Assembly (NCBI RefSeq): GCF_045037415.1
Contig: NZ_CP173438.1
Source: Escherichia coli
GTDB taxonomy: Bacteria; Pseudomonadota; Gammaproteobacteria; Enterobacterales; Enterobacteriaceae
Reading direction: 5' to 3' (one strand)
Length of the DNA: 64,000 bases
In this document: positions 43,584 through 64,000 of the stretch, piece by piece
How the letters are laid out: each line of letters opens with the position of its first letter
Position numbering within the stretch: the stretch's first letter is position 1
Notes under the pieces: generated by a model
Database searches by the model: none
Told to the model about the DNA's origin: nothing
The model's input: only the letters and a program-made list of their open reading frames with translations
Translations under genes and position numbers: made by a program

Positions 43584-43702
43584 AACGCCTCCTGACGCAA
43601 CAACTTACCCGCACAAAATAGAATTGTGCTGTACAAACGTCCAGTTTGAAAGAAGTTTCCTGCGAGGCGCTACGCAAAACGATCGTTAATTTTCATTATT
43701 TT

Positions 43703-43768
43703 ATCCCATAATATGAGATGAAGTTTATATTGTGGGATATATCACCTTTTCCCCACGTCATTATGTGG
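43703..43768. promoter_or_regulatory. Candidate operator palindromes upstream of the IclR-family gene
   Basis: ATCCCATAATAT-N12-ATATTGTGGGAT inverted repeat (43703-43738) and CCACGTCATTATGTGG (43753-43768). Confidence 0.3.
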
Positions 43769-43799
43769 AACACTTCAGCAATATCATCAGGAGAAACGT

Positions 43800-44567
43800 A
43801 TGGCAGAAACCTCTTCAACCACCGCAGGCGCACAAACGTTATTACGTGGACTGGCGGTTCTTAATGCTGTTTATAACGGCTGCCATGACCTAAAAAGTAT
43901 CGGCGAGTTCACCGGCACGACCCGGAGCACAACCCATCGTTTAGTCACCGTTCTGGTGGAACAACGCTACCTGCGCCATGTCCCAACGCAGGGCTACCAA
44001 CTGGGTGCCAAACTGATCGAATTCGGTGCCAGAGCACTGGAAAGCACCTCGCTGTACGAAATTGCCCAGCCCGTTTTGCAACGCCTTGCCCGTTACACCC
44101 TGGACACCGTGCATCTGGGGATCGTTGAAGGCGACGAAGTGCTGTATCTGGAGAAGATCAACAGTCAGCGCGGGCTGGAAATGCGCTCACGCCCAGGCCA
44201 TCGCATGCCACTGGCAATCACCGGCATCGGCAAGGCATTGATCCTCAACCGAACAGAAGAAGAGTGGCGCACGCTGTTTAAGACCTGTGGTGATGAAACA
44301 AAACTGGGCGCATTTATTCAGAACATGCGTCGTTATGCCGCCAGTGGTTTTGCTTTTGATCTGGAAGAGAACGAGCCGACTATCCGTTGCGTTGCAGCGC
44401 CGGTTTACAACGCCCGGGATGAAATTGTGGCGGCTATTTCTGTCGCCAGTACCACCACGTATATGTCGCTGGCGCGTCTGGAAGAACTGGCACCTTACGT
44501 CAAATCCTGTGCAGAAGAGATATCCGCTGAACTGGGCTGGGGTAAGCACGTCCGCAAAGATAAATAA
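43800..44567 (+). CDS. IclR-family transcriptional regulator
   Basis: 255 aa with N-terminal wHTH and C-terminal IclR effector domain; RBS AGGAGA upstream. Confidence 0.8.
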   Translation: MAETSSTTAGAQTLLRGLAVLNAVYNGCHDLKSIGEFTGTTRSTTHRLVTVLVEQRYLRHVPTQGYQLGAKLIEFGARALESTSLYEIAQPVLQRLARYTLDTVHLGIVEGDEVLYLEKINSQRGLEMRSRPGHRMPLAITGIGKALILNRTEEEWRTLFKTCGDETKLGAFIQNMRRYAASGFAFDLEENEPTIRCVAAPVYNARDEIVAAISVASTTTYMSLARLEELAPYVKSCAEEISAELGWGKHVRKDK

Positions 44568-44590
44568 ACCATGATTAAAGGAAACGACTA

Positions 44591-60607: not shown

Positions 60608-60636
60608 AAGGTCATCCTTTCACCCCTTGTGCAGGT

Positions 60637-62634
60637 TTAGCTGTTCAGTAGCTCACGCGCCTGCGCCAGGACATTTTCCGGCGTAAAACCAAAGTGTTTG
60701 AACAACACATTCGCCGGAGCAGACTCACCAAAGCTCGTCATGCCGATCACTTTACCGTCCAGGCCCACGTAGCGTTCCCAGAATCCGGCGATGCTGGCTT
60801 CTACCGCCAGACGTTTGCGTACAGCTTTTGGCAATACCGACTCTTTGTACGCCGCATCCTGATTATCGAAACGCTCGGTACACGGCATGGAAACCACGCG
60901 AACTTTACGCCCTTCTTCCGTTAACGCTTTTGCGGCGCTGACCACTAACTCAATCTCTGAACCCGCAGAAATGAGGATCATCTCAGGCTGACCGTCACAA
61001 TCACTCAGTACATAACCACCACGCGCAATCTCTGCCAACTGTGCAGCGGTGCGCGGCTGTTGCGCCAGAGGTTGGCGCGTTAATACCAACGACGTTGGGC
61101 CATCTTTGCGCTCAATCGCCTGTTGCCAGGCCACCGCCACTTCCACCTGATCGCAACCGCGCCAGGTTTCCATATTCGGCGTCAGACGCAGCGACGCCAG
61201 TTGCTCAACGGGCTGATGTGTCGGGCCGTCTTCGCCCAGGCCGATGGTATCGTGGGTATAAACAAACACCGAGCGGATCTTCATCAGCGCCGCCATGCGC
61301 AGTGCATTACGCGCATATTCCATAAACATCAGGAAAGTACCGCCGTAAGGGATAAACCCACCATGCAGCGCAAGACCGTTCATGATGGCCGACATACCAA
61401 ATTCACGCACGCCATAGGAGATGTAATTCCCCGCCGGATTTTCTCCGGTGAAATCAACCGATTTCTGATGGCGAGTCAGGTTAGAGGGCGACAAGTCCGC
61501 CGAGCCGCCCATCAGTTCCGGCAGCATATCTGCGAAGTGATTGAGGCATTTCTGGCTAACCTGACGGGTTGCCAGCGCCGCCGGATGGGATTGCAGATCG
61601 TGCACATATTTCTGCATATTCTCGACCCAGCCAGCAGGCAAATCACCCTTCATGCGACGAGTAAACTCCGCCGCCAGTTCCGGCCACTGCTTCGCGTAGT
61701 CGGCAAACAGTGCATCCCATTCCTGTTGAACCTGCGCGCCTTTCTCGGTCGCATCCCATTCGGCATAAATTTCACCAGGAATTTCGAAAGGGGCATACGG
61801 CCATTGCAGACGTTCACGCACCAGCGCCACTTCATCTGCACCCAGCGCCGAGCCGTGGCAATCGTGGCTGTTGGCTTTATTTGGCGAACCAAAACCGATA
61901 ATCGTTTTGCAGCACAGCAGACTGGGCTTATCCGTGACGCTTTTCGCTTCACGCACCGCAGCATCTACCGCTTCTGGATCGTGACCATCAACGCCTTCAA
62001 TGACATGCCAGCCGTAGGCACGAAAACGGGCAGCCGTATCTTCAGCGAACCAGCCTTCTACGTGACCATCGATCGAAATACCGTTATCGTCCCAGATAGC
62101 AATCAGATTGCCGAGCTTCAGCGTTCCTGCAAGACCACAGGCCTCGTGGGAGATCCCTTCCATCAGACAGCCATCACCCAAAAATAACCATGTGTGATGA
62201 TCAACAATATTAAAGCCCGGTTTGTTAAATTCTGCCGCCAGCGCCTTCTCCGCAATCGCCATCCCCACCGCATTAGCTACGCCCTGCCCCAACGGGCCGG
62301 TGGTGGTTTCAACACCCGGCGTATAACCATATTCTGGATGACCCGGCGTGCGGGAGTGGAGCTGACGAAAGTCGCGAATATCATCCATCGACAGGTCGTA
62401 GCCTGTAAGATGCAGCAAAGCGTAAATCAACATGGAGCCGTGACCGTTCGACTGAACATAGCGGTCGCGGTTAAACCACTGCGGATTTTTTGGGTTATGA
62501 CGCAGGTGACGACGCCAGACCACTTCGGCAATATCCGCCATCCCCATCGGCGCGCCCGGATGACCGGAGTTCGCTTTCTGGATCGCATCAACACTTAACA
62601 TTCGGATGGCATTAGCCAGTAATTGTGAATTCAT
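60637..62634 (-). CDS. Transketolase, third paralogue (distinct from TktA and TktB)
   Basis: 665 aa with ThDP-binding motifs ([13 protein letters not shown], conserved His residues); roughly 60-65 percent identity to my recollection of TktA/TktB. Confidence 0.9.
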
Positions 62635-62684
62635 ACTTCAGCTCTCTCTGTCTGGCGGGCTGAAACCAGCCCGCTAATCTCGAA

Positions 62685-64000
62685 TTAGTTAGCACAGGCC
62701 ACTGTCATTTCTGTCGGGCGCGGTCTGCTCATTACGGTTTTGATTTCGTCGCGCAGGATTTGCGATTTGCCGCCAAATATCACCTGTACACCGCCATCAC
62801 CCAGTTTCACTAAACCCGCAGCCCCCAACTCCTTCAGCCGTTTTTCATTCACTTTCTTATCGTCTACCAGCGCCAGCCTTAGGCGTGTTGCGCAGGCATC
62901 CACATCTTCGATATTGTCGAAACCACCTACTGCTTCGATGATTTGGTATGGACGTTCTTCGCGCGTTAATGTGGTTGCAACGGCAATCTCTTCATCCTCA
63001 CGCCCCGGTGTTTTCAGATTCAACTTGCGGATCAGTACCCGAAATACGGTGTAGTAAATCGCTGCATAGCCCGCGCCTGCCAGGAACACCAGATACCACG
63101 GCGTGCGGTTTGGCATAACGCCATTCAGTACGAAATCAATAAGACCGCCAGCAAAAGGATGACCAATGTGCACATTCAGGATGTTCATCAGCACAAATGA
63201 AGTGGCATATAAGAAGATGTGAATGATGTAGAGAACCGGCGCTGCAAACAAAAATGCATATTCCAGCGGCTCCGTAATCCCGGTAACAAATGTGGTCAGC
63301 GCACCGGAGAGTAAAAGGCCTTTAATCAGCGCCTTACGTTCCGGTTTTGCTTCCTGATACATCGCCAACGCGGCGGCAGGTAACGCAAACATCATGATCG
63401 GGAAACGACCTGTCATAAACAGCCCCGCCGTCAACGGAGCACCGTCGCGCAATTGGGCAAAGAACACCGGAATATCGCCCGTCACCAGTTGCCCGGATTT
63501 GGTCATGTAGTCGCCAAAGTTGTAATAAAACGGCACGTTCCAGATATGATGCAGGCCAAAAGGAATCAGCGAACGTTCGCCAACGGCGTAAATAAAGGCC
63601 GCGAAGTTCGCGTTATGTCCACTGGTCACCAGCGTTGAAAGCGACGCCAGACCTTTTTGTACCGGTATCCACAGCCACGGCAATAAATAGCCGACAATAA
63701 TTGCCGCCACAGCCGTAATAATCGGTACAAAGCGTTTTCCACCGAAGAAACCAAGAAACTGAGGCAATTCAATATTGTGGAAGCGGGTATAGAGCAGATA
63801 AACAAAGATGGCGACAATCAGACCGCCAAACACTCCCGTTTGTAACGTCGGTACCCCGAGGATCATCGCATAATCACCGTTACTGGCTGCAACGGACTCC
63901 GCAGTAATGCCAAGTTGCGTTCCCATCGTGGCATTCATGATCATGTAACTGATAATCGCTGAAAGTGATGAAGAACCATCACCTGTCAGGCCAATCACAA
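62685..64000 (-). CDS. PTS EIICB component, glucose-family (PtsG/MalX-like), N-terminus beyond window end
   Basis: EIIC core with GITEPLEYAFLFAAP, C-terminal EIIB domain with phosphorylation-site motif DACATRLRL; aligns with PtsG from about residue 60, so the start lies past 64000. Confidence 0.8.
   Translation of the reverse strand, partial: VIGLTGDGSSSLSAIISYMIMNATMGTQLGITAESVAASNGDYAMILGVPTLQTGVFGGLIVAIFVYLLYTRFHNIELPQFLGFFGGKRFVPIITAVAAIIVGYLLPWLWIPVQKGLASLSTLVTSGHNANFAAFIYAVGERSLIPFGLHHIWNVPFYYNFGDYMTKSGQLVTGDIPVFFAQLRDGAPLTAGLFMTGRFPIMMFALPAAALAMYQEAKPERKALIKGLLLSGALTTFVTGITEPLEYAFLFAAPVLYIIHIFLYATSFVLMNILNVHIGHPFAGGLIDFVLNGVMPNRTPWYLVFLAGAGYAAIYYTVFRVLIRKLNLKTPGREDEEIAVATTLTREERPYQIIEAVGGFDNIEDVDACATRLRLALVDDKKVNEKRLKELGAAGLVKLGDGGVQVIFGGKSQILRDEIKTVMSRPRPTEMTVACAN

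Follow-up and report, generated by a model that had tools for sequence, protein, structure and literature searches.

How did catabolic genes that are missing from K-12 come to lie at two junctions between highly conserved core genes of Escherichia coli: were they always there and kept in some lineages only, or did they enter and pass between strains? The sequence analyzed here, called the window throughout, is a 64,000-nucleotide stretch of contig NZ_CP173438.1 (assembly GCF_045037415.1), and the genes in question occupy the spaces between rmuC and udp and between ysgA and metE. A preliminary description, made from the letters alone, had read them as two ancestral metabolic loci that some lineages retained and others lost, rather than as recent horizontal acquisitions. 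Half of that reading held up, as the insertions are old and are not recent mobile genetic elements, but simple retention and loss is not supported. The genes are probably old cargo in hotspots free of mobile genetic elements, inherited vertically in phylogroup B2 and exchanged elsewhere by homologous recombination in the flanking core genes.

Both accessory regions have already been published. Li et al. 2012 (BMC Microbiol 12:51, PMC3349570) described a "tkt1 genomic island" at metE/ysgA in avian pathogenic E. coli (APEC) O1 and B2 extraintestinal pathogenic E. coli (ExPEC), together with a "small islet" of some 5 kb at udp/rmuC that is associated with B2 ExPEC. In the BEN2908 study (PMC12928451) the region carries the label GR 29.

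Over bases 43584-64000 the sequence agrees with several E. coli chromosomes at 100% identity, those of O25b:H4-ST131 strains among them, so the window comes from a B2/ST131-like genome. In the RefSeq annotation of a genome that is identical over these bases, the left part reads fadBA-fre-ubiD-rfaH-tatDCBA-ubiBJE-rmuC and is followed by six accessory genes, udp, ysgA, a further eight plus four accessory genes, and metE-metR, the last two genes lying past the window end. In K-12-type genomes rmuC-udp-ysgA-metE are directly adjacent, and all of the accessory genes are missing from K-12 and O157. The placement at conserved-gene junctions in the preliminary description was correct, with locus 1 at rmuC-udp and the second locus at ysgA-metE. 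Its count of two loci was not: comparison of the junctions with those in K-12, PD4, APEC O2 and the plasmid copies gives three modules, called locus 1, 2a and 2b (Table 1), and the second locus runs beyond the window.

Distribution and mosaic haplotypes of the modules

Locus 1 is present in 1,452 of 5,426 E. coli genomes, 2a in 1,554 (about 1,500 places on chromosomes and 129 on plasmids) and 2b in 1,133. Locus 1 and 2a occur together in 1,430 genomes, while locus 1 alone is seen in about 22 and 2a alone in about 70. Module 2b has the right end of the ST131 type in 672 genomes and is joined to a further module, 2c, in about 460. BL21 and PD4 carry locus 1 and 2a without 2b, and nothing of the island is found in them to the right of position 59540. 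ETEC1738 has 2a and 2b and no locus 1, and on plasmids 2a stands alone. The modules assort in all combinations. At least five states of ysgA-metE exist in E. coli (empty; 2c only; 2a with a 110-bp remnant of 2c; 2a+2b+2c; 2a+2b with a ysgA' remnant) and three of rmuC-udp (empty, locus 1, and a remnant in strain HS-02). Chromosomal copies of the modules stay within about 1-1.5% of the window copy across the genomes searched.

The sequence around the modules is mosaic in carriers outside B2. In PD4, rmuC is 98.5% identical to K-12 and 95.2% to the window; from the spacer beside rmuC through locus 1, udp, ysgA and 2a the sequence is window-like (98.3-100%), and in metE it is K-12-like again. Informative sites of K-12 type and window type stand at 54:5 in rmuC, 8:36 from the spacer to ysgA and 38:7 where metE begins. 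The two switches have Fisher p values of 1.7e-14 and 2e-10. BL21 shares the K-12-like rmuC (54 of 59 informative sites in both strains), and the block from rmuC to lysR is identical between BL21 and PD4 (synonymous divergence, dS, of 0), with outer flanks that differ. ETEC1738 switches haplotype inside ysgA, and its dS to the window is 0.006-0.025 in 2a, 0.156 in ysgA and 0.164 in metE. In all three strains the ST131-like island blocks turn K-12-like within a few hundred bases of their edges. Between the window type and BL21 the median dS is 0.014 for the accessory genes and 0.071 for 18 nearby core genes, a roughly 5-fold difference (p=0.0007). The ysgA allele tracks the presence of the island rather than the background, that of PD4 being 98.3% identical to the ST131-like allele and 95.9% to K-12. 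The presence or absence of these modules behaves like a recombining allele.

Within B2, the picture is that of descent. Between ST131-like strains and APEC O2 the dS of 2b is 0.03-0.07 and that of metE/metR is 0.07-0.09, similar values that fit vertical inheritance there. The flanks of the island haplotype have a dS of 0.02-0.23 to K-12 and 0.22-0.63 to E. albertii; they are E. coli alleles and not foreign ones. Within these flanks, rmuC stands out with a dS of 0.23 between the window type and K-12-like strains, against 0.02-0.06 in the adjacent tat-ubi genes, as would suit a haplotype, either old or imported, at the flank of a hotspot.

Oliveira et al. 2017 (PMC5635113) found that half of the hotspots they studied lack mobile genetic elements and that the core genes flanking hotspots show an excess of homologous recombination. 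Both of our spots resemble these hotspots in their conserved core bounds, their several alternative contents, the lack of integrase or transposase and their mosaic flanks, with haplotype switches in rmuC, ysgA and metE in a small sample of three carriers. As in that study, a recombination gene, here rmuC, flanks one of the spots. The likeness is drawn here from turnover and from the site and dS data of the three carriers, whereas Oliveira et al. scored hotspots by a simulation threshold, T95%.

In most other species the junctions lack these modules. Among the matches listed, 80 species-level loci with 10-kb flanks were anchored on YsgA; E. fergusonii, E. marmotae, E. ruysiae and Shigella lie outside this sample. 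The plain order ubiE-rmuC-udp-ysgA-metE without locus 1, 2a or 2b was found in 78 of the 80, including E. albertii, six Citrobacter species, Enterobacter, Klebsiella, Pantoea, Serratia and Yersinia, and the rmuC/udp and ysgA/metE pairs are adjacent or nearly so in 78 of the 80. Both empty junctions of K-12 are collinear with E. albertii at the nucleotide level. In Salmonella rmuC-udp is empty and a radical-SAM gene sits at ysgA-metE. Unrelated inserts of 1-7 kb at ysgA-metE and 0.6-4.4 kb at rmuC-udp are found in other genera, with other cargo at ysgA-metE in Salmonella, Klebsiella, Kosakonia and others, so both junctions are variable spots across the order.

The module boundaries, their distribution, the empty order in other species, the plasmid copies and the mosaic haplotypes are direct observations, from which we infer a mechanism and an order of events. 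The two junctions would be permissive insertion spots between highly conserved core genes, which three catabolic modules with separate histories, and without mobility functions of their own, may have entered long ago. In B2 they would then have been inherited vertically. In other lineages they may be gained, lost and reshuffled by RecA-type recombination in rmuC, ysgA and metE following conjugation or transduction. The displaced ysgA 3′ end of the ST131 type could stem from an occasional illegitimate join, and 2a would in addition have been captured onto conjugative plasmids beside insertion sequence (IS) elements.

Origin of the modules and rival explanations

Several observations weigh against this account, and some of them would suit instead the view that both loci are ancestral operons which always lay at these junctions, were retained in B2 and were deleted independently elsewhere. 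Locus 1 is collinear at the same rmuC-udp junction in Buttiauxella warmboldiae and adjoins udp in Phytobacter massiliensis. Gene by gene, the E. coli, Buttiauxella and Phytobacter versions are about equidistant, as their flanks are (three-way amino acid identity of 55-59% for the DgoK-like protein and 90-91% for TctA, compared with 88-90% for UbiE and 94-96% for Udp in the flanks). A Citrobacter has 2a at the same ysgA-metE junction with 78-91% amino acid identity (58% for the AllH-like protein), and its flanks are 86-97% identical. Flank-like divergence of same-junction orthologues is also expected from ancient vertical residence with many losses. The lack of mobility genes, the host-like GC content and codon usage, the E. 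coli-like flanks of the island haplotype and a divergence of 2b within B2 close to that of metE/metR fit retention and loss as well. Low dS is not unique to the islands, as the nearby tat-ubi genes also have values of 0.02-0.06, and the sharp edges seen in the carriers could also have arisen when gene conversion altered the flanks at some time after vertical inheritance. The distribution counts come from genomes without phylogroup assignment, and the detailed dissection covers three carriers outside B2. Finally, Li et al. (PMC3349570) reported a Tkt1 with little transketolase activity and a peptide-nitrogen phenotype. What the same-junction orthologues in other genera do establish is that locus 1 and 2a are old residents and not recent arrivals.

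Even so, we regard ancestral retention with independent losses as unlikely. It would have to account for spots that are empty in E. albertii, in 78 of the 80 species among the matches listed and, at rmuC-udp, in Salmonella, and for empty K-12 sites that are collinear with E. albertii without a deletion scar. C. youngae, whose flanks are 92% identical to those of the 2a-bearing Citrobacter, has no 2a. Module 2b lacks close enterobacterial relatives except in Serratia ficaria. The tree of the AllG-like protein of 2a is at odds with the species tree, pairing E. coli with Edwardsiella, Caballeronia with Limnobaculum and Enterobacter with Silvimonas, and its identities stay flat at 77-90% from the family to the class level. 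In phylogroup-A-like carriers the islands are 5-fold closer to the B2 copies than their flanks are, and the modules combine in every way.

The loci could also be classical pathogenicity islands, brought in recently by a phage, an integrative and conjugative element or a transposon. This we consider extremely unlikely, and it is largely refuted by the observations that follow. As the preliminary description had stated, neither locus has an integrase or transposase: none is annotated from rmuC to metE in the identical genome, and peptides of at least 30 amino acids, read from stop to stop in all five junction spacers, gave no transposase or integrase match in Pfam at E<=1. No tRNA gene is nearby either, the only one in the window being a tRNA-Glu gene (23885-23960) about 20 kb away inside an rrn operon. 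By blast against the 5,426 genomes each module matches carriers only, at a median of one place per genome, and the right-end spacer is single-copy even in sensitive blastn mode, so no recognizable multi-copy IS or miniature inverted-repeat transposable element fragment is present. Thus a sensitive search for IS remnants, whose discovery was to refute the preliminary reading, found nothing at the chromosomal loci, either in the junction peptides or in multi-copy blast behavior. There was no phage match for the loci and no match in Rfam. Locus 1 was found on none of the PLSDB plasmids, and its one plasmid place in the RefSeq E. coli collection was left unexamined. IS66/IS3/DDE remnants adjoin 2a on plasmids and not at the chromosomal junction. 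Set against the classical island definition of Hacker and Kaper, the loci vary in presence between strains but have no tRNA site and no integrase, transposase or IS; nor is there a tyrosine or serine recombinase at one end, as in an integrative element. Two strains do have an IS1 here, KA0011 inside tctA of locus 1 (H31/H1/H176) and R11 inside 2b (H111), and such single-strain inserts indicate that IS elements land in these loci without being part of them.

Base composition is similarly core-like, with exceptions. The 41 core genes have a GC content of 0.524 and a GC content at third codon positions (GC3) of 0.569. The corresponding values are 0.527 and 0.545 for locus 1, 0.514 and 0.506 (p=0.0016) for 2a, and about 0.485-0.488 and 0.535 for 2b. 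Each of the three modules has a GC content that local core windows also show, and by Karlin's B no accessory gene departs from the core range. The claim of core-like codon usage is therefore broadly right, except for the lower GC3 of 2a and the AT-rich genes lysR (GC 0.460) and rpiR (0.408, about 4 standard deviations under the core); likewise the GC and codon profile across the window is interrupted by one 1.2-kb trough at the boundary of 2a and 2b. The dinucleotide distance delta* is 0.057 for locus 1 and 0.056 for 2a, values reached by 3% and 0% of local core windows, whose mean is about 0.03. The codon adaptation index (Sharp-Li weights), which is a secondary measure here, is lower in 2a. 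A recent island would find some comfort in a GC content slightly under the genome average (published as 48.6% versus 50.8%; 0.485 for 2b here), in the B2 ExPEC association and in the presence of 2a on conjugative virulence-type plasmids. It would not explain why copies differ by up to about 1.5%, with a dS of up to 0.08 for 2b among carriers, which indicates that the insertion is old, or why BL21 and other commensal and laboratory strains carry locus 1 and 2a.

The right end of the ST131-type island raises a further alternative. The absence of direct repeats noted in the preliminary description is true of locus 1, at whose ends none was found, but the ysgA-metE island has a 24-nucleotide imperfect repeat, the right copy of which lies outside the window. 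Chance would produce such a pair with an expectation of about 1e-7. The left copy lies near the end of an intact ysgA with an altered 3′ end, the island-linked YsgA closing in ...TQYGVKK (stop) where the ancestral type closes in ...TQYGGKKSL (stop). The right copy runs into a ysgA 3′ end and terminator of the K-12/E. albertii type and is a displaced fragment of the original ysgA end; it is preceded by 143 unique bp, which have no other home in any collection searched. The repeat is confined to the ST131-type form (672 genomes) and is missing from the 2c-bearing and 2a-only forms, so it was rejected as a general feature of the island. Also rejected was the idea that the altered GVKK (stop) ending is a foreign replacement supplied by the island; the break maps right after CAGTATGGTG in comparison with E. 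albertii, HS-02 and Citrobacter. Allelic YsgA endings of a similar kind occur in Citrobacter. The altered C-terminus lends weak support to an att-like site.

This structure could make the island a decayed site-specific element that targeted the last 24 nucleotides of ysgA and whose integrase was lost or acted in trans. The footprint is canonical, resembling that of tRNA-targeting islands, with an intact gene and its new 3′ end on the left and the displaced original end 13,976 bp away; it recurs in 672 genomes, among them the non-B2-like ETEC1738. The ends of 2a, moreover, are equal within about 20 nucleotides in five contexts (the E. coli chromosome with and without 2b, an E. coli plasmid, the Citrobacter chromosome and an IS context in Salmonella). 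We nonetheless consider a site-specific origin very unlikely. No integrase or remnant of one is found in the island or its spacers, and the right repeat is missing, with another right junction in its place, from about 460 genomes that carry 2a+2b+2c and about 370 that carry only 2a. The module ends are natural gene ends, namely the promoter of the first gene and a variable LysR tail, for which no recombinase is needed. The repeat is accounted for just as well by one-sided homology combined with an illegitimate join to an empty-site allele; the displaced ysgA end fits such an exchange, and a decayed site-specific element is the less likely source. Plasmid copies of 2a keep about 15 nucleotides of ysgA, which suggests capture from the chromosome and not the reverse. 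It is hardly probable that the ST131-type island is an integrase-less or trans-mobilized relic and that 2a is a fixed-end cassette shuttling between ysgA-metE spots of Escherichia and Citrobacter and conjugative plasmids by an undescribed, site-preferring mechanism. Old cargo exchanged through homologous recombination in flanking core genes, with vertical inheritance in B2, is the reading we prefer.

Gene content and predicted functions

Table 1. Positions of the accessory modules and their neighbors, in window coordinates
Feature	Position	Strand	Remarks
rmuC, left core flank of locus 1	42156..43583	-	annotation of identical genome
Locus 1 (published udp/rmuC "islet")	43680..49275	+	5,596 bp
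IclR-family regulator, locus 1	43800-44567		
DgoK-like 2-dehydro-3-deoxygalactonokinase, locus 1	44591-45595		
DgoA-like 2-keto-3-deoxy-6-phosphogalactonate (KDPGal) aldolase, locus 1	45585-46214		
TctC, locus 1	46239-47213		
TctB, locus 1	47230-47736		
TctA, locus 1	47749-49239		
udp, core gene between the two spots	49274..50038	-	
ysgA, core gene	50300..51109	+	
Left copy of 24-nucleotide imperfect direct repeat	51075..51098	+	TGGAATGGTTTACACAGTATGGTG
Module 2a	51110..59540	+	8,431 bp; boundaries vs K-12, PD4, plasmid copy
BiuH-like cysteine hydrolase, 2a	51366-52034		
AllH-like, 2a	52040-52900		
AllF/FdrA-like, 2a	52995-54554		
AllG/YlbE-like, 2a	54551-55975		
Carbamate kinase, 2a	55968-56924		
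Allophanate-hydrolase C-terminal-domain protein, 2a	56941-57330		
NCS1 permease, 2a	57356-58579		
LysR regulator (PunR/AllS-like), 2a	58657-59562		
AT-rich trough, 2a/2b boundary	59400..60600		lysR 3′ end, spacer, rpiR; GC 0.34-0.45, 1.2 kb
Module 2b (tkt1 module)	59541 to ~65049		~5.5 kb; cut at 64000 by window end
RpiR/MurR regulator, 2b	59762-60607	+	
Transketolase Tkt1, 2b	60637-62634	-	
Glucose-family phosphotransferase system (PTS) IIBC (ptsG), 2b	62685 to past 64000	-	window stops inside gene
Right copy of 24-nucleotide imperfect direct repeat	~65051-65074, outside window		TGGAATGGTTTACGCAGTATGCTG; 13,976 bp downstream

Locus 1 stands in place of 43 bp of K-12 spacer, and the udp allele beside it has one additional C-terminal Lys and another terminator. 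Its aldolase scores 320 against NCBIfam PRK09140 (cut-off 207), all homologues of its kinase carry PF05035 (DGOK), and the Buttiauxella orthologues have the DGOK and TctA/B/C Pfam domains; outside E. coli the kinase has no relative above 59%. The locus would probably serve the import and cleavage of a 2-keto-3-deoxy sugar acid, with a tripartite tricarboxylate transporter taking up the compound and the DgoK- and DgoA-like enzymes phosphorylating and cleaving it. It shares a DgoK-family kinase, a DgoA-family aldolase and a local repressor with the dgoRKADT operon of D-galactonate (DeLey-Doudoroff) breakdown, but has TctCBA in place of DgoT, no DgoD, and an IclR-type regulator where dgoRKADT has a GntR-type one. 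Since a DgoD dehydratase is missing, the imported substrate is probably already a 2-keto-3-deoxy acid. A truncated locus 1, consisting of iclR and about two-thirds of dgoK, occurs in E. coli HS-02 (L087 ~4990-6320), one of the 5,426 genomes. This remnant is 78-81% identical to the usual allele and is fused to a K-12-type udp flank, with udp lacking a stop codon. It has no blastn-level match to the Buttiauxella or Phytobacter version, so there is a further lineage of locus 1 beyond those sampled.

Module 2a resembles the AllFGH system, a characterized oxamic transcarbamylase (PMC11326118). Its AllF-like protein scores 496 against the NCBIfam FdrA subfamily (cut-off 433) and its carbamate kinase 378 (cut-off 266), and the Citrobacter orthologues match AllF_N, AllG and AllH in Pfam. 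It shares these families and the kinase with allFGH-allK (fdrA-ylbE-ylbF-ybcF) of anaerobic allantoin degradation in E. coli K-12 (PMC11326118, PMC9843812), a paralogous set elsewhere in the genome, which is accompanied by allantoin genes where 2a has a BiuH-like amidohydrolase, an allophanate-hydrolase C-terminal protein, an NCS1 permease and a LysR regulator. The cysteine hydrolase is nearest to the biuret amidohydrolase BiuH, at 276 bits and under the cut-off of 370. This BiuH-like first gene and the stand-alone allophanate-hydrolase C-terminal domain, standing beside AllFGH-like genes, hint at a biuret- or allophanate-like substrate; it is probably not the oxalurate derived from allantoin. 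The NCS1 permease would import a ureido or carbamoyl compound, which the BiuH-like amidohydrolase, the AllFGH-like carbamoyltransferase and carbamate kinase may process; judged from these families, the likely product is carbamoyl phosphate, from which ATP and ammonia would follow.

The plasmid copies of 2a account for 129 places in the E. coli genome collection, and in PLSDB the module is on 82 plasmids (78 of E. coli, 4 of Klebsiella), all predicted to be conjugative. They are 94-95% identical to the chromosomal copy and adjoin IS66/IS3/DDE remnants. In Salmonella contigs, a 2a that is 96.4% identical to the Citrobacter chromosomal copy is flanked by IS21/rve/DDE_Tnp_1 genes.

Module 2b ends with hxlB, which lies past the window end together with the right junction. 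HxlB scores 205 against TIGR03127 (cut-off 160), Tkt1 1008 against TIGR00232 (cut-off 682) and the PTS IIBC protein 607 against TIGR02002 (cut-off 592). The PTS would import a sugar that is routed through 6-phospho-3-hexuloisomerase and transketolase. A complete hxlB-ptsG-tkt-rpiR module is present in contigs of 33.5-34.8% GC (Logan assemblies SRR30564056, SRR30564038 and SRR30563993; L095-L097). The copy in the contig of 33.5% GC is the closest relative found outside E. coli, at 72% nucleotide identity and 87% amino acid identity for the PTS protein; the only other relatives of that protein are in Serratia ficaria (85% identity), Sebaldella (70%) and Firmicutes (about 50%). By this phyletic pattern, 2b appears to come ultimately from outside the Enterobacteriaceae and to have a foreign, patchy ancestry. 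The spacer upstream of hxlB, past the window end, contains a 24-nucleotide inverted repeat rich in TTTCATGAAAT-like motifs (L001 33210-33233 and 33406-33429; window coordinates are L001 coordinates + 31583), and related motifs are kept upstream of hxlB in the AT-rich homologue L095. This is probably the RpiR operator and promoter region.

Module 2c is found between hxlB and metE in classical B2 strains such as APEC O2 and is missing from the window type. It consists of an orphan Hcp-effector pseudogene of the type VI secretion system and two small genes. At least two variants of it stand alone in A25, FDAARGOS_944 and O145, and it is also found alone in a divergent Escherichia lineage. Many strains have such an Hcp (tssD)-effector pseudogene with small putative immunity genes at ysgA-metE (L006 11738-13445, the APEC O2 chromosome; L100 9199-10907; L101 6201-7746; L008 ~2168-3859), in at least three sequence variants (99%, 95.7% and 86-87% identity), one with a colicin-type domain.

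Other parts of the window gave a few further observations. The rrn operon between hemG and mobB (20570-25587) has the tRNA-Glu gene in its spacer. The K-12 operon at this position, rrnA, has presumably tRNA-Ile and tRNA-Ala, a difference in spacer type that probably reflects gene conversion among rrn operons. In AZ 187, a near-identical genome with 6 mismatches over the yih part of the window, the annotation calls yihF (~15743-17173), which has an internal stop, a pseudogene and places another between yihI and yihA (~10149-10315), this one small, hypothetical and frameshifted. In E. coli IAI39 (NC_011750.1, 4.42-4.66 Mb; L105, L106) the yid genes lead to rluF/lysC/mal within about 150 kb, which implies a large rearrangement relative to K-12 in that part.

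Consequences for reading island presence

The islands of Li et al. (PMC3349570) and those of the window have the same junctions, gene content and B2 association, and like us these authors found no integrase, transposase or border tRNA. The ST131-type island is about 14 kb long and lacks 2c, whereas theirs is 16 kb; the direct repeat is seen in the window type, and none was reported by them. They considered the island foreign from a 2% difference in GC content, whereas we find the GC content core-like, and only 2b foreign by its phyletic pattern. Since both the loci and the mechanism are in the literature, the case is an ordinary one, to which we add minor points: the dissection into modules, the orthologues at the same spots of other genera, the occurrence of 2a on plasmids and the ysgA' repeat. 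Current concepts are unchanged by these findings.

There are nevertheless practical consequences. A host-like composition and missing mobility genes do not show that a locus is ancestral. What has been called the tkt1 pathogenicity island in fact comprises three or four modules that are independent of one another, and 2a is found on plasmids as well, so association studies should score each module separately. Finally, the islands are good markers of phylogroup B2, but because they travel with a few kb of flanking core DNA they are unreliable for tracing descent outside it.

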